DNA from: Naegleria gruberi
Taxonomy: Eukaryota
Assembly: GCA_000004985.1 (NCBI GenBank)
Contig: GG738860.1
Strand: one strand, 5' to 3'
DNA: 64,000 nucleotides
Each line of letters begins with the position of its first letter. Position 1 is the stretch's first letter. Of this stretch, positions 1,493 through 52,550 are shown in pieces. The position numbers were made by a program, and so were the translations under genes. The notes below the pieces were generated by a model. The model saw only the letters and a list, made by a program, of their open reading frames with translations. It ran no database searches and had not been told where the DNA came from.

Positions 1493-1638
1493 AGAGTTTA
1501 TTTTACATATTTGAATTATTGACTGGTACTGTAACAATAAAATTTATTTTTTGAAACGACAAAATTTGGCGGGGCTGTGTAATGGAAGATCCATATTATT
1601 CGAAACAAAAAGAAAGTACCTACGTGAATATTTCGTAA

Positions 1639-2631
1639 ATGAATGAACTCCATTCACAATTAAAACAATTAGAAAAATCAGAAGAAATTCTTTCGGAAAA
1701 TCCACACCGTTTCACTCTCTTTCCGATTCAATATCCTAAACTGTGGGAAATTTATAAAAAGAGATTGGCATCTTCCATTTGGAGTGTTGAACAATTTGAT
1801 CAAATTATTAGAAATGACATTTCTAAATTATCGGAAATTTGCAATTCTGATCACAGTTTCATCAAGATTATTCTTGCGTTTCTTGTTGCAAATTGTAAAC
1901 AGAAAACAAATCTATGGGGAGCATTCAAAGATATTCAAATACTAGAAGCAAAACATTTCCACGGCTTTCGGCTGGCCATGAAGAATATTCATTACGAAAT
2001 GTATTGTAATCTATTCGAAATTTTAACAGAAGAAACAGAAAGAAGTGAACTAATAGAAAAAATGATCAATTCAACCATGAAGAAATCTCAATATACAAAG
2101 AAATGGCTCAATTCTGACAATTTATTTTCTGAAAGATTGATAGGTTTAGTTTGCATTGAACAGATTTTCCTTTCTGCAAGTTTCTTTTCCATTTTTTGGC
2201 TAAAGAAGCGTGGATTAATGTCAGCTTTAACAATTTCCAACGATTTGATTTTCAGAGATGAAGAATTTCATTCCAATTTTTTATATTCTCTATATTCGAA
2301 TTTGAAACATTCTAAACTTCCTCAAACTCTCGTTCATTCACTTGTCAAGGAAGCAGTTGACATTGAAAAGGAATTTATTACAAGTTTACCCACTGAATTG
2401 ATTGAATTGGATAGAAACTCCATGTATCAGTATGTGGAAGTAGTTTCAGATAACATTCTAATTTCATTTGGTTATGAAAAACTCTTCCATACTGAAAATC
2501 AATGTTCATGGATTCAAGACATGTTAATGAACAAGTCGGGTTTCTTCTGGAAAATTGGATTAGAATCCTATTCTTCCATTCCACATTTCCCAACCATTAA
2601 CAATGAATTAAAATTGGATGAAGATTTTTAA
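1639..2631 (+). CDS. ribonucleotide reductase small subunit (R2/beta)-like protein, apparently metal-ligand-deficient
   Basis: [85 protein letters not shown] align to R2 motifs ENPRRFVIFPIEY..., [49 protein letters not shown]. Confidence 0.7.
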   Translation: [330 protein letters not shown]

Positions 2632-3238: not shown

Positions 3239-4039
3239 TTGAGCCATCTTGAATCCATTGTAACTTTAAAAAAAATGGCAAACATGATTACTGACATTCC
3301 CAATGATGTTCTATTAGACATTCTCTCCGATTTTGACCTAAAAGATTTATTCAATCTCTCACTCTGTAATCAATTCTTTTTAAAATTAATATTCAATCAG
3401 ACATTGAAAGATTTCTCCAAGTTTAATCTTGTTAAAAATCTATCCGAAAAGCCAATACTCTCCCGATACGAATTTAGATATACGAAAGATGAGAAGGATT
3501 TTGAATTTTGTAAAACTCAGAATAGAATTTGGAGAATTCATTTGATTTCCTACTTTCCCAAATTTAAAAGTGATTTGAATGTGAAAAATTGGCTCCATGT
3601 ATTGAGGTGGGTAGTTTACAAAGTTTACAATAATTCCAATATTGAAACTCTTACATTTTTTATTTTAATGAAATATTGATTATTTATCATGAAAAGGAGG
3701 AGAATTCTCCATTTGAAATTGTATGATCCATCCAAATTACCCCTCACTCCAAATACAAATAGTAAATCATTCGAGGTGGAGAAGCCAATCTTTGTACATA
3801 GTAACAATGACTCGAAATTTATTGAAGGTTGTGAATGGATTTATAAGTGTCCACTCAAATATGAAGAATTATCATTTTTGAAGGAGAATTCAAGATTATG
3901 TAAGGAATGTTCCAAAGTTGTTTATTTTGTGAATAATATTGAGGATTTTACGGAAAAGATTGAGGAAGGAAAGTGTGTAGCATATCAAGCAAAGGTTAAA
4001 ACGAATTATGTTATTCACATGGGAAGAAAATGTTTTTAA
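3239..4039 (+). CDS. F-box protein with C-terminal Cys-rich region; 2 exons (3239-3606, 3697-4039)
   Basis: IPNDVLLDILSDFDLKDLFNLSLCNQFF F-box motif. GTGGGT donor after ...HVL, acceptor ...catgaaaag| restores frame into RRILHLKLYDPSK... Confidence 0.45.
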
Positions 4040-4351
4040 AATAATTCCATAAATGGAAATTTAAATTCTCAATTCCAAAAAGTGATGATGAGAACTCATC
4101 TCTCAGTTAATCTTTGAATAAGTTCAACACTCTAAATCTCTATCCAATTAATAAATGATAGTATGATGTGGAATTTATTGTAAATTTTACATTGTTACTT
4201 GAAAGTGGTAACATTCTCAGTTCATTAGAAAGGAAGTATGGAAAATATCACAATTCTAAATCATTGGTTGCAAAAGAGTGGATAAATATGTCATTTGTTA
4301 ATAAACCAGCGAACAGTCAACTTGAGGATAAAACTCAAAAAAAACATCATC

Positions 4352-4672
4352 ATGGCCATCACTTGTTGCTTCTCTGACAAACCAATCAATGCATGGGATA
4401 AAGGAGATTGGTTATTTGCTTTCATTTTGCTCATGTCTGTCATTTGTCCACCACTGACAGTTTGTTACTGCTTCTTTTGCATTCCACTCAATAAGAAGAG
4501 AATTCACGAGGTTATGGAAGATCCTAGCAGGAGTTTATGGTGTTCACCTGAAACTAATCCTGCACTTCATATATTCTTGAGCTTTTTATTCACATTACTG
4601 TTTTGGTTGCCTGGTGTTTTTCATGCTTGGTATGTCATCTTTGCAGTTTCAGTTGCTGTACATGGTAAATAA
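4352..4672 (+). CDS. PMP3/UPF0057-family small hydrophobic protein with extended loop
   Basis: FILLMSVICPPLTV ... HIFLSFLFTLLFWLPGVFHAWYVIFAV resembles Pmp3 motifs (LPPLaVfl ... FWLNILLTLLGyIPGIIHAlYVI). Start taken at ATG 4352. Confidence 0.45.
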   Translation: MAITCCFSDKPINAWDKGDWLFAFILLMSVICPPLTVCYCFFCIPLNKKRIHEVMEDPSRSLWCSPETNPALHIFLSFLFTLLFWLPGVFHAWYVIFAVSVAVHGK

Positions 4673-4810
4673 TTATAAACAGTATTCCAATAAAAGAACA
4701 CAATATAATGCTTATCTACTAAACCACGTAATTACTCCGTTGTCGATTAGTAAAAAAAACCTCAACACCAATTTCTCCGCTCAAATAATTTCATATTTAC
4801 AGTAAAAAAA

Positions 4811-6554
4811 ATGAAAAAAACCGTTGTAAATAATAAGGCAGACTCATCGGCAACAAAACCAACATTTCAACCGGAGACTTCACATAAGAAGGCCCTTTCA
4901 ATTTATGGAGGCAGTGCAAAGACGGTAGTAGCTCCCACTGCTGTGTCTACCTCAAAATCAAATTCTCAGCAAGCAAAAAAAGTTCCGATAATTGTTGATG
5001 CTTCTTCTGGTAGTAGTAGTAAATCACAAACAAAAGTTTCAATTAAGACGGCAACTGTGTCGTCTCAAAAGGATGCCTCTGTTACTCAATCGAAAGAAGA
5101 GAAATTAAAGGAATTGTTTGCTCAATTACCTCAAGAAATTGTGTTGCAAGTTTTGGATTATTATGTTGGTTCGGGATTTAAAGCTTGTTTTCCAAGATTT
5201 GAAAAATTGGCAAATACTAATTTTAAGGAAGCATTTGAATACGATTCTTTGAGTTTTGATGAATCAATGTTTTACAAACAATATTTTGGAAAGTTCAAAA
5301 ACAGAGGAGACACAAACCCAAAACCTATTTTCTGGAGGTCAGCAAGTGAAAATCTTGTAGATTTAAATAGAATTTCTAAGGAATTCCATTACTTGTTATC
5401 ATTGCAAATTTAGGTCGAGAACCTATTGATATTTATTACAAAAAGTTGTGTACTTTATATTTTGCAATTAGAAAGAAAAGACCAAGTGATCTGGAGCAAA
5501 TAGAGACCAGAAGATTGAATTATATTGCTAATATTTTCGAGAAGGATAAAGGCTTATGTGAAAAGGTTAAAATTCTTGATTTTTACGGATTGGAAACGTT
5601 TGAAGGGACTATTGATTTTGCAGCAAATAATTTTCCAAATATAGAAATACTAACACTAGGGTTTCAACAAGGATTACTAAAGGTTATGAATTTCGTAGAA
5701 CAATAGATATGTACCAAATTGTTTCTGCAATCTGCAAAATGAGCAAATTGAAGGAGTTCAAATTTAAGGGAAGGAACTTTTACTTTGAGGGCATTGAAGA
5801 AATCTCAAAGTCAACACCTCTTATTCAGAAATTTTCACTCATAGGCTCTAGATCAATTCTTGAATGTGGTAAATCTATTGGAAATTGGAAACATTTAAGA
5901 GAAATAGAAGGAGCAGTCCATTCCTACTTTGATAATAGTTCCATTGCAACTCCACCAACTCCACAAGAACAAACAAATTTCTTCACAGTCATTAATGAAA
6001 TTAATTTAGAAAAGTTAGAGCTGCTGAATGATGATATTTCCAGTGCCAAGTTCCATAAACTGCCATCTTCACTCATAACTCTTAACTTGGAAAGAACAAG
6101 AGTTAGTTCTAAATTATTTGAAGCAATTTCAGAGTTGGAAAATCTCAAGATTCTTATTCTTGACAGCACATCTGGGTTCGAAAGTGAAGATTTCCAACAT
6201 CTCAATAGTTTGCCAAACCTTGAAGAGTTATCACTTAATAAGAGTTCTCATTGTGGAGATGTTGGGTTGAAACACATCTCTGCCGTTAAAAGTTTGAAAA
6301 GAGTTTTCTTGAACAAGTGTGAGATACATGATGAAGGAGGAATCTCACTTTCCAAATTGAGTAATCTTGAAATTATTGACCTTCAATATTCTGATATTAC
6401 AGAGAAAACAATTAACAATATTGTTCAAAACTGTAAGAAAATCAAAAAGATTTGCGTGTATAAATGTCAGAAAATCTCTAAAAATAAGATAGCTGACCTT
6501 CCCAACATAAAACAGATTCTCTCAGAAAATCCAATCAACAGAGAGTATTATTAA
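4811..6554 (+). CDS. F-box/LRR-repeat protein (FBXL-like), three ORF segments 4811-5413, 5446-5706, 5709-6554 joined by short introns/frameshifts
   Basis: LPQEIVLQVLDYY F-box-like. Downstream ORFs are LRRs (LEELSLNKSSHCGDVGLKHISAVKSLKRVFLNKCEIHDEGGISLSKLSNLEIIDLQYSDITEKT). Putative intron 5397-5473 restores frame (donor non-canonical GTTATC). Confidence 0.45.
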
Positions 6555-6591: not shown

Positions 6592-9399
6592 TTACAAAAA
6601 CTCACTAGTTTTTGCAGGACGTCTAATTGAATTTGTCATACCATCATGAAATTCCAAATACATGGTATGAATTGATTTGAGTTGAGATCGTCTTCTATTC
6701 TTTTGCTCAATAGCAACTTGAGCACTGACATTCTTTGGAGAGGCCATTGGAGAAGATTTAATCTTTTCTAACATTTCTTCATTGGTTTGTTCATTCTTCT
6801 TTTTGAACTTTCTCTCTAATTTTTCAAAGTGAAGAGCGGAAGAGATAATCTTTTTGAAAGACTCACTAATTACAACAGGATTATTTTCCTGGTTTGGAGT
6901 AGATGAGTTTGGTGGTTGTGGGATTGTTTTTTGGGAGGTTTTTTCTTGCTTTTGGTTGGATGGATACACACTCACTTCATCAAGTGGAGGATCAATCATA
7001 TTTTCATGAGTTTCATTCACATAGGTCTGTTTGACATTAATTCCATATGAAATACAAATATCCAAAATCCTCTCAAAAGCAAATCTTTCCATATCATTTC
7101 TAAACAGTTGTCTCAAACCCTTCATACCAGAATGAGCCAAGGAAGAAAGTGCTGATCCGCTGTTCAAATTTGCAAAGTGTTTGTTGGAAAGGATTTGATA
7201 AATAAATGGAGAGACATCGGTGGCCAAATCCTTTACTGACATGGCTGTTGGACATGTAGAGTAATCTTCACTATCATATGTATTTGGAGTGAAACAATTC
7301 GAATGTAAAGTCTTGAAAATATTTTCCTTATGTGTTAAGCTTCTCTTGAAATCACCTTGTTGTTTTGGATATTGAATAAAATCACTGGAAATATCAAATC
7401 CTGATTTTTTACAATCCTTAAATATCTTGGTAAGGGTAGCTACACGATAGACTTGAAGTGACCTTTCCTGATGTCTGTTAGAAGTAACATCCAACATATC
7501 AGACCATTCAACCCATTCCAAAACATTAGAAATATCCTTCATTGATGAACCAGTACTGAAAGTAGGATAATTTTCAAAGCAACCATTCATAAGACTATCC
7601 ATCTTATCCAACTCTCCCAACAAGTTATTATACAAGCTTAAAATATTATGTTGATATTTTGTGATTAGTGTTGAGTCTGCCTTTTTTGTTTTGAATATTA
7701 TGTTCATGGCATCGAAAATATCCTTCTTTACATCCTTGGTGATGGACATCATTTCTGTTATAGATTTAGACTTGTCAAAACTCATGAATTGGATAGTATT
7801 CAAACATGAACGAATATCATTGTCAGAGTCCTTTACAAAAAGTGTCAAATCATGTCTGGACACACTGCTTAATAAATGTTCCCTCTTCAATATCATGCTC
7901 AATCTATCCACAATTCTTTGAGTATTATCAGTTCTGACGTCATCTCTTCTAAAGACAAGTAATTTACTTCTTTGTCTCAATTCTTTCAATCCAGGTGAGT
8001 AACTGTATTATATTTCACAATTCCATATTGACATGTTTATAAATTAATAAAACAATTAAAATTATTAAATAGTATAAATAAGAAACATGTAAAATAATAC
8101 AAATACTCACTGATCATTGCAAATACAAATAATTGGACGCAAAAGTCCTGGATCTTTCTTCTTCTTATTCTTTTCAACTTTAACTCCTGATTTGTTCTTC
8201 TTACTCTTTGAAGATTCAGGCTTTTCCTTCTTTGTTTCTTTGGATACTTTTGGATAGGCAATTTTTAAAATTTCAGAAACAACCGACTTGTTCTCAGAGT
8301 TGTGCACTCCATCAATTTCGTCCAAAATCAATAGCTTTGGCTTTTTACTTCCAAAGACTGTTTGCATTTGTGTGACTTTTTGAATTTCTGGAATGAGTTT
8401 TTCCTTAGATCTATCATCAGATGCATTCACTTCAATTGGTTCATAACCTGCTTGCTTGGCTGCAATGTGAGCAAGAGTAGTTTTACCAATACCAGGAGGT
8501 CCAGCAATGAGGAGAATCTTGTGTTCAGGACCAATAGTTTGCTTCTTTTGAAACTTTTTAGAAGGATCATTATTTTGATGTTGTTGTTGTTGTTGTTGTT
8601 ATCCTTCTTTTGAGAATTGTTGTTATTGTTTGATCTTGGAGCAAAAAAGTTTCTTGCCTTATCTGAGGATGAGCTTGTTGTTGTAGAGGCATTACTCGAT
8701 TGTAAATTCTTCTTTTGTTTGGCCAATTCTGGGAAAACAATTGTATCCCATTCCTTTATCCATCTCAAAACTTCTGAATTTGTTTTCTTTACAGAATGTC
8801 ACATTAATAATGGCAAAATGACAACTTACATCATCAGTTAAGAGATCCAAGTATGACTTTGGAGAATACTTGTCGACCAATAGTTCAAACTTTTTTGGTT
8901 TTGTATCTACAATTTCCACATCTCCATCATTGTCATGTTTGGATGATACTTGTTCTTTACTCTTTAAATTTTCTCTTGCCTTCTTTTTAATTTCAGTCTC
9001 GTATCTGATCCTTTTGACATCTTCCAATAGATCGTTGAAAGGTGTTTTGAGAAAACTTCTTCCAATATTTAATTTACTGGAAACATTATCGAGAGGTTTA
9101 ATTTCATTGTCTTCTTCCATAAACGTCAGATAACACATATCACCATCCTTTGATCCAATGCAAGCAATAAAATCCTTGTCAGTTGGTGGCAAATCATCAT
9201 AGTAAATTCCTTTAAAAGTCTCCGATTTCATATCACTACTGTCCTCATCATCTACAATAATGGATGAACCGTAAACACTCAAAGTGTGTGATGGTGGTGA
9301 GTGAAACTTTAATCTCTTCAATTCTTGTTCGGCAAGAGAGTTTCCACCACAGTGTTTTTGATCCTTCTCTTCATAATCCAAACGATTTCTTTTAGACAT
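6592..9399 (-). CDS. Ctf18/RFC1-like clamp-loader large subunit (AAA+); exons 9399-8840, 8796-8111 (frameshift near 8579-8600), 8002-6592
   Basis: LLVDKYSPKSYLDLLTDD|KTNSEVLRWIKEWDTIVF (cf. yeast Ctf18 LWVQKWRPKKFLDLVGNEKTNRRMLGWLRQW). Walker A ILLIAGPPGIGKTTLAHIAA, Walker B LLILDEIDG, sensor RPIICICND. Introns 8797-8839 (43 nt, GTAAGT..AAAG) and 8003-8110 (GTGAGT..CAG). Confidence 0.7.
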
Positions 9400-9503
9400 T
9401 TTTTATTTATTTAAATTTTTCAAAATTTGAATGGCGGCAAACAAGAAAACTAGCCGTTAACAAATCAAAAAAATTCAAATCTCACCAATCCATCCGTGAG
9501 TCT

Positions 9504-10343
9504 TTATTTCGATGCAGAAGCAGATGAAGGTTTAGATTTTGGTACTCTGGCATTTCTACTCTTGTTTGCTACTCGTAAATCATTGATATATTGTTTCATC
9601 ATGGTATATTTGTGCTTTCCTAGAGCGTGCAGATAATTCCACGAGTAGATACCTGAATCGTGTCCATCCGAGAAGATTATCCTAATAGCATACGTTCCAA
9701 CCATTTCAATATTCGATATTTTAATTCCTCTCTTTCCAAAGACAAGTCGTTTCTGTCCTCCCTCACCTTGTACTTCAGCAGAGGGACTCTCCACTCGTAG
9801 AAATTCTGCCAACAGACTTGTTACTACTAGTGATTGTGGATTATTGATAGTAAAGTGGAGTTCGAGAGTGGTCTTTTGTTTCCTCAGCTTGATTTCCTTC
9901 ATTTGAATATTGTCTCCGTATGGCTTCTTTGGATCCATTGGAAGATCGATGGAGAGTTTTCTCGACTTGTTGATTTCATGTTGTTCTGTAGCTACAGTGG
10001 TTGCTGCTGGATTCATTCGTGAGGAAGCCCTTACCAAGTGATCAGGTATCGAGTGAGAATATTGTTGTATCATGTCTCTGAGTTTTTCTCTAGATGAAGA
10101 TGAGGGAGAAGAATTATCATTATCGGAACAAGCCTTCTCTTGATGTTGTGTAATGTGGTTAATATTATGTGAGAAGGAGCAATGTTGTTGATTGTTGCTG
10201 TAAAAGAAGTTGAAGAAATTGTTTTTGTAGTATGATGATGGAAGCTTGTTCTTCTTTAGCAGTAAGGAAAGCTTGAGTGTTGATGCAAACATTTTTTGAT
10301 AGGTTTGATTGTTCTCTATTCGTGCATGTTGAGTTGTTAACAA
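9504..10343 (-). CDS. DUF971-domain protein, probable mitochondrial presequence
   Basis: C-terminal ...LLAEFLRVESPSAEVQGE...VGTYAIRIIFSDGHDSGIYSWNYLHALG matches DUF971 (LR..CPCA.C ... W.DGH.SG.Y....L) with Cys replaced by Ser. MFASTLKLSLLLKKNK at the second Met looks like a targeting peptide. Confidence 0.5.
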   Translation of the reverse strand: MLTTQHARIENNQTYQKMFASTLKLSLLLKKNKLPSSYYKNNFFNFFYSNNQQHCSFSHNINHITQHQEKACSDNDNSSPSSSSREKLRDMIQQYSHSIPDHLVRASSRMNPAATTVATEQHEINKSRKLSIDLPMDPKKPYGDNIQMKEIKLRKQKTTLELHFTINNPQSLVVTSLLAEFLRVESPSAEVQGEGGQKRLVFGKRGIKISNIEMVGTYAIRIIFSDGHDSGIYSWNYLHALGKHKYTMMKQYINDLRVANKSRNARVPKSKPSSASASK

Positions 10344-14602: not shown

Positions 14603-14731
14603 ATTCTCTGGAGAATAAAAACAATTGTATTTTTAAAGTAAAATAACCTTCATAAAATTGTTGTAATAAAGGAAATGAAATCATTGTTTTGGGAAAAGGA
14701 AACCAGGTTGCTAAACACCAGATAATTAAAA

Positions 14732-14819
14732 GGCGACTGAGGGAATTGAACCCTCGACCCTCAGTTATCTCAGCATTACTGCCTACAAGACTGATGCACT
14801 ACCACTGTGCTAAGCCGCC
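14732..14819 (-). tRNA. tRNA-Thr(UGU) with a 17-nt intron at the canonical 37/38 position
   Basis: Minus strand GGCGGCT-TA-GCAC-AGTGGTA-GTGC-A-TCAGT-CTTGTA[GGCAGTAATGCTGAGAT]A-ACTGA-GGGTC-GAGGG-TTCAATT-CCCTC-AGTCGCC. All stems pair, with one G-U in the acceptor stem. Confidence 0.75.
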
Positions 14820-15537
14820 TTACATGTAACTGAAAACATTTTAACATACATACAATATCAACACCAACCTTTATCGGCCAAGTGAACCAACGTTGAATGT
14901 TTTAATGATAATAATATTCTTATAGGGAAAATAATGTTATGAAACATCAGATTTATACTTTAGATATTGCTTGAATAATGTATGAAGATATGAAATTCAC
15001 ACCACCACCTTGGAAATATGATTTTTCAGAAGCTTTTTGGATGGAACACAGATCTTGAAATCAAATCGATTCACTTTCGTTTCATTTGACTATGGTGGAA
15101 TGAAATTTTTGATAAGTGTAAAAGTTGAACTTTGGATTTGAAAATAATATTATTGCTTGCCATTCAATTCGTTTTGATTTGTTCATTGATTGTATTGGTA
15201 TTAATCTGTTCCATGTCTATTGTGTGAAAGAGAGAAGGAAAGGAACAAGACACCACAATAAATTGAATACTCAACATTCAATAGACAATTTGTAAATTAA
15301 AATTGATCAAAACGTACTTTACACTATTTTACACTATAATTTCAATTAAACTTTTCAAATTCCTTTCCAAAATTATTATTCCGAATATTTCTCCCATTTC
15401 CTTTCCTTGAAATTACAAAACATCACAAAAAAATAGAACAAAGTTGCAACTAGATTTATTTAATTTCTTCTGCATGAAACTCTATCTCTCAAGATCCTTC
15501 TAGAAAAAAGAGAGATCATCACAAGTAGATAAAGACA

Positions 15538-17135
15538 ATGCACACTAAAGATTTTCTCTCCTTTGTAAATTCTTCCGAGCCATGTACTTCAAAAACTGGC
15601 TTACCATCATCATCAAGTAATAATAATACAACAACAACTACCACTACTAATAATACGAATACAAATACAAATAATAATAATACAACAGCAATAGTAAATA
15701 ATGGTATTACACCATGGAAACCCTATTCTATTGATACATTTTCTGCTAATTTTGCACAACCTTTGAATAGTAATTTTGCTAGTGAAGTAACAAATCAACC
15801 TTCTGTACAAAGTTCTTATCCGAATAGTAGTTGTATTAATAGTGATGTAAATTCGGATGCTTCACGTAATTCATCTCAACCTTCTTCTTTCTATGATTTC
15901 TTATTAATTAATACTGGTCTTATTTCATCGCCAACAATTCCCTTCTTGGCATCACCTTTTGATCAGAATGATCAACCTCTTGTTAGTATGTATCAATATT
16001 AATTATATAATTAATCGTCATCTTTAATTATTTTAATACAATTTTGTATACAGTACAAGGAAGTAAAGTTGGTAAAAAACTAATCTTTACAGTTGGACCT
16101 AATGGGTTAATGCCTGGAGAAATGTGTGAAGGTCATATTAATATACCCTATGATGATTTGGAGCTAGTAGGAAAATATGTGGGAAGTGGAAGTTTTGGAC
16201 ATGTTGTAGTTGCAAAACATAAAGTTACTGGAAAGAAGTATGCTCTCAAAATGATCTATCAAGATAGTAATCATTTGGAATTATCTCAAAAGATGGAATG
16301 GGCCGAGTTTGCAGCCATTTACTTTTGTGATCACTTGTCATTGATCAAGGTTCATGAATGTTACTATAGAAATTTATGTTTTTATATGCTATTGGATTAT
16401 TGTAATTGTGGAAGTTTGAGAGATATCTTAAAGGTAGTGCCAGTGGAAAATATCACTGAGAGAATATTATCAGTTATTGCAGAAAAGGTTTTAATTGGAT
16501 TGGACCATTTGCAACAAAATCATGTCATTCACAGAGACATCAAACCTGAAAATATTCTTGTAAACTATGACAAGACAATTAAGAAGGCTGAGATTAAAAT
16601 TGGAGACTTTGGACTCTGTGGACACAAGAAATTGGAGACTGGTTCTACATTTTTCAAGACAGTGAATGGAACATTTATCTATAGATCTCCAGAAAGACTT
16701 TTAGAGGATAATTACAACTATACAAGTGATATTTGGAGTCTGGGAGTGATGGCTGTAGAGCTCATAGTTGGAAGTCACCCTCTCATAGATATGGACATTA
16801 CTGATAGTAATAGAGACAACCTCTATCAAATACCAGAAATTATAATGAATGCTGTAAATAATCACAAGTTTGGAAAAAATTCTGAGAAGGTTCTGAGTGA
16901 AGAATTTAAAAATTTTGTAAAGAAGTGTTGTGAATATGAGCAACAGAAGAGACCATTTGCTCGTGAAATGCTCTCACACGCTTGGATTAAAAAGTTCAAA
17001 GACAGAGATAATGATGTTTTGTTTAGTGAGTGGCTAGCCTTATTCTATCTCAAAAAGAAGAATCAATTCAACATTCCAGCAGAATCACCTAAAAATCAAT
17101 TGAACGCCTTTACTGGATTCAGTCACCATAAGTAA
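15538..17135 (+). CDS. STE7-like MAP kinase kinase with Asn/Thr/Ser-rich N-terminal exon; exons 15538-15985, 16054-17135
   Basis: VGSGSFGHV, YALKMI, HRDIKPENILV, DFGLCG...YRSPE, DIWSLGV. Intron 15986-16053 (GTATGT...TACAG) joins ...DQPLV to IQGSKVGKK. Confidence 0.7.
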
Positions 17136-17277: not shown

Positions 17278-17360
17278 GCCCGCGTAGCAGAGTGGTCAAA
17301 TGCGTAAGACTTAAGATCTTATCCCGAATGGGTTCGTGGGTTCGAACCCCACCGCTGGCA
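17278..17360 (+). tRNA. tRNA-Leu(UAA), class II with long variable arm, no intron
   Basis: GCCCGCG-TA-GCA-GAGTGGTCAAA-TGC-G-TAAGA-CTTAAGA-TCTTA-TCCCGAATGGGTTC-GTGGG-TTCGAAC-CCCAC-CGCTGGC-A. One C-T mismatch in the acceptor stem. Confidence 0.8.
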
Positions 17361-49787: not shown

Positions 49788-52550
49788 ATGACACGAATTG
49801 CACCCTCAACGGATAAAGATGAAGAAATGGATGATAATCATGCATTATCAGATGAAGACTCTCAACAAGAAGAGGTAACTCCAAAAGAGAGGAAACCACC
49901 AGCCTCTATCAAGTGTCTCTTAATTGTATTGGTGGTTGTCGCTGTTGTCGCCACCGTTCTTCTTCTCACGACCATTTGGATTTCATGTTTCTCATCGAGT
50001 GTTTCATCCCTTTCTGTCTCACTCATGTCAGAACAATTTACCAAAATCATAAGTTTCACAGACTCTACTATTAAGGATGTAATAATGGTCTCTGAGAATG
50101 CAAAGAATACCATGTGGTGGGATTANNNNNNNNNNNNNNNNNNNNNNNNNNNNNNNNNNNNNNNNNNNNNNNNNNNNNNNNNNNNNNNNNNNNNNNNNNN
50201 NNNNNNNNNNNNNNNNNNNNNNNNNNNNNNNNNNNNNNNNNNNNNNNNNNNNNNNNNNNNNNNNNNNNNNNNNNNNNNNNNNNNNNNNNNNNNNNNNNNN
50301 NNNNNNNNNNNNNNNNNNNNNNNNNNNNNNNNNNNNNNNNNNNNNNNNNNNNNNNNNNNNNNNNNNNNNNNNNNNNNNNNNNNNNNNNNNNNNNNNNNNN
50401 NNNNNNNNNNNNNNNNNNNNNNNNNNNNNNNNNNNNNNNNNNNNNNNNNNNNNNNNNNNNNNNNNNNNNNNNNNNNNNNNNNNNNNNNNNNNNNNNNNNN
50501 NNNNNNNNNNNNNNNNNNNNNNNNNNNNNNNNNNNNNNNNNNNNNNNNNNNNNNNNNNNNNNNNNNNNNNNNNNNNNNNNNNNNNNNNNNNNNNNNNNNN
50601 NNNNNNNNNNNNNNNNNNNNNNNNCTGCTTCAAATGAGACTGATATATCGGGGATCAACTTTGATTGGTACTTTGGATTTGATATTTCTGTTGCAACTAT
50701 TAGTAATTATCTAAAAGATATAACTGAAAAAATCACTGGATCTTTGGCTTTTATCATTGAAATTGAGACAGAATTTATTGTTGCCTCAAGTTATCCAGAG
50801 ATTCCCGTGACCAAATGGGATGATAAAGGAAATCAAGAAAGAAAGAAGGCTATCAATTTTGGAGTACCAGAAGTTGAGCAAGTTGGTCTATTCCTCTATG
50901 AAAGATATCAGAAAAAGTTGGATTCATTAAGTTGTGGAACTTTTGAGTTTTTATCATTTCAGGATAGATATGTTAATGTGTATAGAATGTGCAATCAAGC
51001 CAACATTAATTGGTAAGTATCCTGTAAATATTAATTACTGACCGGTGGAAAAGGTTATTTGTATTCTCAGTTCCTCAATGGAACTATCTAGGAACCATGA
51101 TTATCGCCATAATTGCAGCTCTTTCTTCATCTATTGTAATTGTCATTGTTGGTCTCTTATTTGGGGTATATTCCTCCTTCAAGATTGTAAAGCCGTTCCA
51201 TAATTTAATAGATTTATTTGCAAGTGTTTCAAACATGGATTTGGATAATATCATTGTTCTTCCATCTCCTTTCAGAGAAGTTCATCAATTACAATTACAC
51301 TTCAAAACTATGGTTGTTAAGATTAAACAATATCGATGCTTTATTCCTCCTCACTTACTAGCTCAAATTGATGCCGAAGGAGCTGGTGATGAAAATGATA
51401 GGGATTTTGAAAAACCTTCCATTAGAGCCGCCAAGGATCACAATACAACACAATCTTCTCTGAGAAGTGGGAAATCTTCGAGACATTCTGGAATTTCACG
51501 TTCAGGAAATGCAACATCAAATTATCATTCAACCTCCAACCAATCATCATTCCGTCCCGTCTCCAAATCACTTTTCAAATTGGGGCTTGAAAAGAAGAAG
51601 ATTACAGTGGCCAACTTTTATTTTGTGGGATTGGACTATTGTATGGAAAATTTATCAGACTCAGAGCTTGTAACAGTAATGTCAGATTATTTCGAAGTCA
51701 TTCAAAAAGTTGCCAAACTCACTCTAGGACAATTGGGTTCTTTTGAGGATAATTCAATGACCATCAGCTGGAATTCAACATCAGAAGTTTCCAATCATGA
51801 AGAGAAGGGTGTTGCCTCCTCTCATCAAATCCTCCTTAAACTTTCACAATTGAAAGAAACTAAATGGAAAAAGAAGGAACATTTAGTTAAGAAAGATTTA
51901 TTACAAAACGTTGATTTTAGAGCTTCAATTTTAACACAAGTTTGTAGATGTGGTAATTTAGGTATGTTTAATTGATTGAAATTTAGTCTAATTTACATTA
52001 TTAGGTACGCAAGAAATTAAAACCTACTCAATTGTTGGAAGTTATCTTCACAATTTACACAAGATTATGAAACATGGTTTGAAGTTGAATGTCAAATTGA
52101 TTGCTTCTGAGGAAACTTTGTTTAAATCGAATGATACTCACCAACATAGATTGGTGGGAGTGAAGAAGGTTCTTTCTCCAGATGAAACAAGCGCAGAATT
52201 CTTCTCTGACTCTCAAAAGGTAAATAAGAGAAAGATTAAATTATTTGAGATTGGAGAAACTAATCAAGTCAATGAGGATGGTAAGTTTATTTTACAATTT
52301 CTTTGAAATTTTTAAACGAACACAATCAGAGTGGATGTATGAATTACAACAACATAAATCAAAGGAAAAATGGAAACTCTACAATGAAGCCTGTCTATTA
52401 ATGGAAGAGGAAAAGTATGAAGATGCCATTACTAGTTTCGAATCCTACTTGTTATCATATAGAGCAGAAACCAATGAAGATATATGTGCTTGTTATATGA
52501 TTAAGAAATGTTACAAATTGCTGCAAAACAAAGCTAACCAAAACAATTGA
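49788..52550 (+). CDS. two-TM receptor with extracellular Cache-like sensor, HAMP-like linker and a degenerate (likely inactive) class III cyclase-homology domain plus helical C-terminus; 5 exons, interrupted by assembly gap
   Basis: TM1 LLIVLVVVAVVATVLLLTTIW. Sensor ITGSLAFIIEIETEFIVASSYPE. TM2 IIAIIAALSSSIVIVIVGLLFGVY. KITVANFYFVGLDYCMENLSDSELVTVMSDYFEVIQKVAKLTLGQLGSFEDNSMTISWN parallels cyclase VTVLFSDIVGFTSL...YFT...IE..GGTV.KFIGDAVMAVFG with both metal Asp replaced. Introns 51976-52018 and 52272-52331 verified in frame. The 51017-51095 junction is not in frame. Confidence 0.5.
50126..50624. other. assembly gap (499 N)
   Basis: Run of N inside the CDS above. Confidence 1.

Follow-up and report, generated by a model that had tools for sequence, protein, structure and literature searches.

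In the small subunits (R2 proteins) of class Ia ribonucleotide reductase (RNR), iron site 1 has an Asp residue as its terminal ligand, and both irons are bridged by the Glu residue of the ENIH motif. A gene near the start of a 64,000-nucleotide stretch of Naegleria gruberi contig GG738860.1 (the whole stretch analysed, hereafter referred to as the window) encodes an R2-like protein in which both residues appear to be replaced, and raises the question of what an R2 protein can do without them. An earlier note on this DNA, made from its letters alone, had aligned the protein by eye with class Ia R2 and suggested a ligand-deficient paralogue, perhaps similar to yeast Rnr4. Here we report a computational analysis of this gene, NrdB2. 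It encodes a diverged class Ia R2 paralogue that keeps four of the six metal ligands, evolved independently from a duplicate within its own lineage, coexists with two canonical R2 genes and is probably non-catalytic. Lundin et al. 2010 (PMC3019208) had previously catalogued the gene, without describing it, as 'N_gruberi_NrdB2' (JGI Naegr1 32493) in supplementary tables that also give N. gruberi NrdB1 as 56348 and NrdA as 58675. A literature search by the NrdB2 accession and locus tag returned no matches.

The translated NrdB2 open reading frame (ORF) is identical to the N. gruberi 'predicted protein' XP_002678788.1 (EFC46044.1, D2VB17, NAEGRDRAFT_32493), and matches PF00268 (ribonucleotide reductase small chain) over profile positions 1–280 of 281, with E=2e-64 and 218 bits (curated cut-off, 33.6 bits). 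Its best relatives of solved structure are eukaryotic class Ia R2 proteins, namely those of Plasmodium, yeast (Rnr2), mouse and human (E ~1e-59 to 1e-61). Yeast Rnr4 matches with E=4e-46, bacterial NrdB and NrdF proteins match much more weakly, and NrdF structures are distant relatives (E ~1e-4 by sequence; 19% identity in Foldseek). An AlphaFold2 model computed from a 40-sequence alignment is all-helical, with a mean predicted local distance difference test (pLDDT) score of 82.3 and a predicted template modelling (pTM) score of 0.82. Disorder is confined to the C-terminal tail, in which residues 300 to 320 have pLDDT values below 50. A Foldseek search placed the model closest to the human, mouse, Plasmodium and yeast R2 structures, with target-normalised template modelling (TM) scores of ~0.9 and root-mean-square deviations of 1.9–2.2 Å. 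NrdB2 is thus confidently predicted to have the ferritin-like R2 fold.

The residue mapping of the earlier note proved correct in alignments generated with phmmer, MAFFT, a profile hidden Markov model (HMM) and BLASTP, none of which places Asp or Glu at either of the two ligand positions in question. In every alignment, the bridging Glu of ENIH is replaced by Lys115 (KNIH). The stretch around the first ligand Asp (canonical FFAASDGIVNENL) is altered and one residue shorter in NrdB2, so that AASDG faces A84-N85-C86-K87-Q88. This one-residue deletion blurs the register of the Asp column, which stands opposite Cys86 (phmmer), Asn85 (MAFFT and BLASTP) or a gap (profile HMM); whichever of the four aligners is used, residues 84 to 90 contain no Asp or Glu. 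The other four ligands (His118, Glu174, Glu208 and His211) and the radical Tyr (Tyr122, in NIHYEMY) are present, as the note had read them, and align exactly; the six-residue set Asp, Glu, His, Glu, Glu, His is therefore incomplete in NrdB2. Along the radical-transfer pathway, Tyr122, Asp207 and Trp48 (equivalent to E. coli W48 and mouse W103) align exactly, and Tyr311 lies one residue off the register of the conserved tail Tyr (E. coli Y356 and mouse Y370). The resulting signature, W/-/K/H/Y/E/D/E/H, is unique among the 385 R2 proteins surveyed, 331 of which carry the full WDEHYEDEHY.

The changes are distributed along the whole protein and are not concentrated at the metal site. Of 134 columns with a conservation of 95% or more across 234 canonical homologues, NrdB2 keeps 78 and differs at 56 (42%), 27 invariant ones included. 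After each of the two surviving Glu ligands, the invariant Gly is likewise substituted, by Gln in one case and by Glu in the other. Because the two substituted ligand columns are D and E in all 234 canonical homologues, and 56 of the 134 conserved columns have changed, the ligand losses are not a chance matter. The C terminus reads LKLDEDF, where canonical Naegleria R2 has FRLDDDF and FTLDEDF also occurs among canonical proteins; judged from this resemblance, the LDEDF tail of NrdB2 should bind the large subunit (α).

The idea that the gene is a ligand-deficient paralogue, and that a canonical R2 might be found elsewhere in the genome, was borne out by a homology search that started from the canonical R2 protein nearest to NrdB2. 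This search recovered two canonical N. gruberi R2 proteins, NAEGRDRAFT_56348 (P0122, the catalogued NrdB1) and NAEGRDRAFT_31365 (P0123). Both consist of 338 residues, are 91% identical to each other, carry all ligands (WDEHYEDEHY) and keep 133 of the 134 conserved columns, as against 78 columns and two missing ligands in NrdB2. The 330-residue NrdB2 is similar in length, collinear with them throughout and 47–48% identical, and it shares their lineage-specific N-terminal and helix motifs. The window contains no further RNR genes, and a class II RNR is also reported for N. gruberi (PMC3605638). Canonical R2 is duplicated in several vahlkampfiids (P0122/P0123, P0388/P0389 and P0124/P0392): N. gruberi and Willaertia magna have two loci each, and Naegleria fowleri has one full copy and a 198-residue fragment model, FDP41_008058.

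The origin of NrdB2 lies in the same lineage. Over the profile columns, it is 47.1–48.4% identical to five canonical R2 proteins of Naegleria and Willaertia (next best, 44.9%), and it shares their N-terminal 'QLEK.EEIL.ENPHRF' and 'KLPQ..VHSLV.EAV' segments. An HMM of the Naegleria and Willaertia clade scores NrdB2 at 315 bits, as compared with 243–271 bits for HMMs of other heteroloboseans, plants, fungi and Bacteroidota. A first neighbour-joining (NJ) tree had joined NrdB2 to Chlorella-like ligand-deficient R2 proteins (53%), a grouping that we dismissed as long-branch attraction after re-analysis. Once aberrant long branches were removed, NrdB2 fell within the Naegleria and Willaertia clade in 89% of 500 bootstraps, on a branch of 0.77 as compared with 0.04–0.10 in its relatives. 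From this placement and branch length it follows that NrdB2 is a duplicate of the vahlkampfiid-lineage R2 that evolves roughly ten times faster, and not a viral or bacterial import. The time of the duplication relative to the Naegleria and Willaertia splits is addressed by few informative sites: where the two canonical genes differ, NrdB2 matches R2b at five sites and R2a at one. Most of these matches are homoplasious, and no N. gruberi-specific state is present in NrdB2.

NrdB2 has no detected counterpart in other organisms. The annotated proteomes of N. fowleri, N. lovaniensis and W. magna, all within the searched collection, each contain canonical R2; no orthologue of NrdB2 was found in them, nor in a total of 15 billion proteins. 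A word-index search of 5.8 billion clusters returned nothing more than 46% identical, an exhaustive phmmer search of 1.84 billion representatives left NrdB2 a singleton with its next match at 40% identity, and a metagenome DNA scan yielded a single canonical-type R2 at 39% identity.

Because the Asp and the bridging Glu are gone, a cationic Lys stands in the bridging position and bulky residues replace two Gly residues, a μ-oxo diiron cluster would not be assembled, and without it NrdB2 would form no tyrosyl radical of its own by the canonical O2 reaction. We infer that NrdB2 would be unable to build the diiron–tyrosyl cofactor. The ammonium group of Lys115 probably occupies the vacated site and neutralises it against Glu174 and Glu208. 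Our preferred reading, held by analogy and with moderate confidence, is that NrdB2 is a non-catalytic β′ subunit that acts through protein contacts with canonical R2, the large subunit or both. With yeast Rnr2–Rnr4 as the precedent, it would most likely heterodimerise with one of the canonical N. gruberi R2 proteins and dock on α through its kept tail.

The precedent itself is conserved in yeast, in which Rnr4 is essential or near-essential, whereas no orthologue of NrdB2 was found even in sister species. Rnr4 (Y4, β′; 1jk0_B and 1sms) is, like NrdB2, a eukaryotic class Ia R2 paralogue with partial iron ligands that stands beside a canonical R2. Both keep the radical-site Tyr, the Trp, the Asp, the tail Tyr and an acidic C-terminal ...DF tail, and in both the highly conserved columns are depleted to a similar extent, with 87 of 134 kept in Rnr4. 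The 'Rnr4-like' label of the earlier note therefore holds as an analogy, but the ligand sets are complementary and the two genes stem from separate duplications. The Rnr4 signature, taken from the PDB 1jk0_B sequence, is WDEYYEDRYY, in which the Asp and the ENI-Glu are kept and His, Glu and His are replaced by Tyr, Arg and Tyr (ENIY, RDRGAY); in NrdB2, by contrast, the Asp and the bridging Glu are gone and both His residues are kept. Rnr4 groups with fungal Rnr2 in the NJ tree, consistent with independent duplications in fungi and vahlkampfiids, and the overlap between the positions lost in the two proteins is not significant (odds ratio (OR) 1.8, p=0.14). The likeness of NrdB2 to Rnr4 is convergent, and NrdB2 is not an Rnr4 orthologue. 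Rnr4, which lacks key residues of the diiron centre, may serve as a chaperone (PMC3824934). R2lox, also named in the note, was set aside as a model, as NrdB2 lies within the eukaryotic class Ia clade and retains both the radical Tyr and the C-terminal tail predicted to bind the large subunit.

Several points weigh against a β′ role. NrdB2 still has the radical Tyr and every pathway residue, for which an inert subunit has no obvious need, although Rnr4 keeps them too. More conserved columns have changed in NrdB2 than in Rnr4 (56 versus 47 of 134), and its dimerisation surfaces could be damaged as well. Rnr4 lost a different ligand set, which makes the analogy loose. Finally, because sister species have no orthologue, the genus does not need NrdB2, and the ratio of non-synonymous to synonymous substitution (dN/dS) is unusable for gauging its constraint.

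Another reading, which we regard as unlikely but worth serious consideration, is a functionless or nearly functionless relic, under relaxed constraint and nearing loss, or a protein co-opted outside RNR. The singleton status of NrdB2, its absence from related annotated proteomes, a branch ~10 times longer than those of canonical R2 and the loss of 42% of the highly conserved columns, invariant ones among them, would all be expected of a relic. The reading frame tells otherwise. It is intact after ~52% amino-acid divergence from canonical R2, whereas a neutral-drift simulation, started from a back-translated canonical R2 sequence with the local base composition, predicts ~25 stop-creating substitutions (minimum 11 in 400 runs); none is seen (Poisson P~1e-11), and selection therefore kept NrdB2 open. 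The other five frames across the ORF contain 17–28 stops each, no indel relative to canonical R2 shifts the frame, and the G+C content at third codon positions (GC3) equals that of the neighbouring genes. Read from the sequence, this argues for selection to remain open during most of the history of the gene, under a clearly altered constraint. The confidently predicted fold also speaks against a relic, as does the survival of specific features: the four ligands, Tyr122, Trp48, Asp207 and the terminal LDEDF.

Alternatively, NrdB2 might act as an α-binding decoy or negative regulator, its cofactor-less homodimers competing with active R2 for the tail-binding cleft and damping deoxynucleoside triphosphate synthesis, for example in differentiation, encystment or iron limitation. 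In favour of a decoy, the LDEDF tail is conserved and the metal site is defective. The two canonical R2 genes are self-sufficient and the sister species manage without NrdB2, so a helper in cofactor assembly is not obviously needed. We nevertheless consider a decoy improbable: the first residue of the tail heptapeptide is Leu, where Phe is usual, and the literature searched yielded no earlier case of a decoy derived from R2.

A protein that keeps Tyr122, Trp48, Asp207, the tail Tyr and a predicted α-binding tail could also be an active radical generator with a remodelled cofactor, such as a mononuclear site at Glu174, Glu208 and His211, a dinuclear site completed by Cys86 or Asn85 and a carbamylated Lys115, or a metal-free radical on a modified Tyr, which would be convergent with bacterial class Ie. 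Bacterial class Ie R2 proteins lend this idea a precedent, being active without metal although Lys replaces a ligand Glu (PMC11846895). In class Ie, which descends from class Ib NrdF, depends on NrdI and has a metal-free DOPA (3,4-dihydroxyphenylalanine) radical, the Asp is kept and three Glu residues are replaced (QSK or VPK) (PMC11846895). Like these proteins, NrdB2 has Lys for a metal-binding Glu and retains the radical-site Tyr, but the class Ie Lys stands at the other bridging position. Membership of class Ie is ruled out: NrdB2 has lost the Asp, has replaced a single Glu (E174 and E208 are kept) and lies in the eukaryotic class Ia clade, with matches of ~1e-60 to class Ia as opposed to ~1e-4 to NrdF. 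Since, in addition, the divergence extends over the whole protein instead of centring on the site, no other organism conserves the changes and N. gruberi has canonical R2 genes, we judge a remodelled cofactor very unlikely, and give still less credence to NrdB2 as a working radical subunit with a cofactor so far unseen in eukaryotes. If it did carry a radical, it would represent a new eukaryotic RNR cofactor, and an unconventional cofactor could allow N. gruberi to make deoxynucleotides under iron scarcity.

Other ligand-deficient R2 proteins offer further points of comparison. Apicomplexan R2_e2 forms an old, phylum-wide clade that is sister to standard eukaryotic R2, and most of its members lack the radical Tyr (Munro et al. 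2013, PMC3824934). R2_e2 resembles NrdB2 as a non-canonical eukaryotic R2 paralogue of unknown role beside a canonical R2, but NrdB2 is a single-species offshoot inside the canonical clade and keeps the Tyr. Membership of R2_e2 is excluded by its placement in the canonical heterolobosean clade, indirectly, in a tree that did not include R2_e2 sequences. Sporadic cases are scattered elsewhere, with ~10 ligand-deficient proteins among the 150 most similar cluster representatives. They include those of Chlorella sorokiniana/ohadii and Parachlorella kessleri (WDQH[V/L][S/E]DENM, without the radical Tyr), the foraminifer Nonionella stella and the metagenomic P0276. They belong to other lineages and have ligand patterns unlike that of NrdB2 (WDQHVSDENM in Chlorella, for instance); at ENIH, P0276 has the same Glu-to-Lys change as NrdB2. 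Positions lost in NrdB2 overlap modestly with those lost in five of the seven other deficient R2 proteins compared (OR 2.3–3.0, p=0.003–0.02), and not significantly with those of the other two. Substituted-ligand R2 proteins noted outside the window are P0336, P0359, P0356, P0276, P0314, P0380, P0362 and P0378, several of them unnamed Logan or JGI proteins.

A foreign gene, acquired by giant-virus insertion or horizontal transfer, is hardly credible: although the NJ tree of Lundin et al. 2010, in which NrdB2 has a very long branch (0.37) and from whose maximum-likelihood counterpart it is absent, placed it beside the long branches of mimivirus, African swine fever virus and Hydra (PMC3019208), and our own first tree likewise grouped it with long branches, such placements reflect long-branch attraction and give way to the well-supported Naegleria and Willaertia position, the best score, the highest identity and the motifs all point to that clade, a viral-contig scan with the NrdB2 protein found no relative, and G+C and GC3 match the neighbouring genes.

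The features of NrdB2 are listed in Table 1, together with an E2F-like site upstream of its start codon. The corresponding pattern, TTTSSCGS, has two matches in the window, as compared with 2.35 expected by chance; the upstream match, TTTGGCGG, is at most suggestive of a candidate cell-cycle promoter element and serves as a lead only. The second match (9434–9441) lies on the 3′ side of the minus-strand ORF 9504–10343, in the gap before ORF 8692–9399. The upstream regions of canonical R2 genes from an environmental Naegleria (L001, 660–745) and N. lovaniensis (L003, 2815–2900) have GAAATTTTAAAA, GTAACGG and ACAAAACCGTT in common, a set of Myb-like AACGG/CCGTT motifs that forms an inverted repeat in L001. 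Upstream of NrdB2, only a degenerate TGTGTAATGG (~1576–1585) is present.

Table 1. Positions in the window of the NrdB2 gene, its key residues and an upstream motif
Feature	Position	Strand	Description
E2F-like TTTGGCGG	1565..1572	+	67 nt 5′ of the NrdB2 ATG, in 31% G+C DNA
NrdB2 coding sequence	1639..2631	+	complete, single exon; 330 residues and TAA; diverged class Ia R2 paralogue
Trp48	1780..1782	+	radical-transfer pathway, kept; exact alignment
Asn85-Cys86	1891..1896	+	stand where Fe1 has its terminal Asp ligand; AASDG to VAN-CK, one-residue deletion, no carboxylate
Lys115	1981..1983	+	in place of the bridging Glu ligand; ENIH to KNIH
His118	1990..1992	+	Fe1 ligand, kept; exact alignment
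Tyr122	2002..2004	+	tyrosyl-radical position, kept; NIHYEMY, exact alignment
Glu174-Gln175	2158..2163	+	Fe2 ligand Glu kept, Gln for invariant Gly; VEG to IEQ (G175Q)
Asp207-Glu208-Glu209-Phe210-His211	2257..2271	+	pathway Asp, bridging Glu and Fe2 His kept; RDEGLH to RDEEFH (G209E)
Tyr311	2569..2571	+	disordered tail; one residue off the register of the conserved pathway Tyr, 19 residues before the C terminus
C-terminal heptapeptide LKLDEDF	2608..2628	+	resembles the eukaryotic R2 large-subunit-binding motif

The window as a whole is AT-rich (~31–38% G+C) and gene-dense. Directly 3′ of NrdB2 runs a series of ORFs on the same strand (3239–6554, +), which includes an F-box protein (3239–3679) and a leucine-rich repeat protein (5709–6554); the ORFs at 3689–4039 and 4811–5413 (+) have no Pfam match. 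The minus-strand ORF 9504–10343 encodes a GBBH-like_N (DUF971) domain (E=6e-23). Two tRNA genes are present: tRNA-Thr(TGT) at 14730–14820 (−), which at 91 nt is long enough for an intron, and tRNA-Leu(TAA) at 17278–17360 (+). An imperfect 27-bp tandem repeat (15614–15702; 3.3 copies of CAAATAATAATAATACAACAACAATA) lies directly 5′ of a protein kinase ORF (16044–17135). The lowest G+C content in the window (0.256) occurs at 50001–52000, and mutually overlapping ORFs (49788–50714, 50114–51016 and 50028–50633 on the minus strand) point to low-complexity or repetitive coding sequence.

Ligand deficiency is a well-known theme among R2 paralogues, as seen in Rnr4, R2_e2 and the scattered Chlorella and foraminifer cases. 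NrdB2 adds an independent and very young case, from a free-living relative of the pathogenic amoeba N. fowleri, and its ligand losses fall on the half of the set opposite to those of Rnr4. A comparison of the two could reveal which features (fold, tail, Tyr and pathway residues) a non-catalytic R2 must retain. For annotation, metabolic reconstructions of Naegleria should leave NrdB2 out of their count of active R2 proteins.

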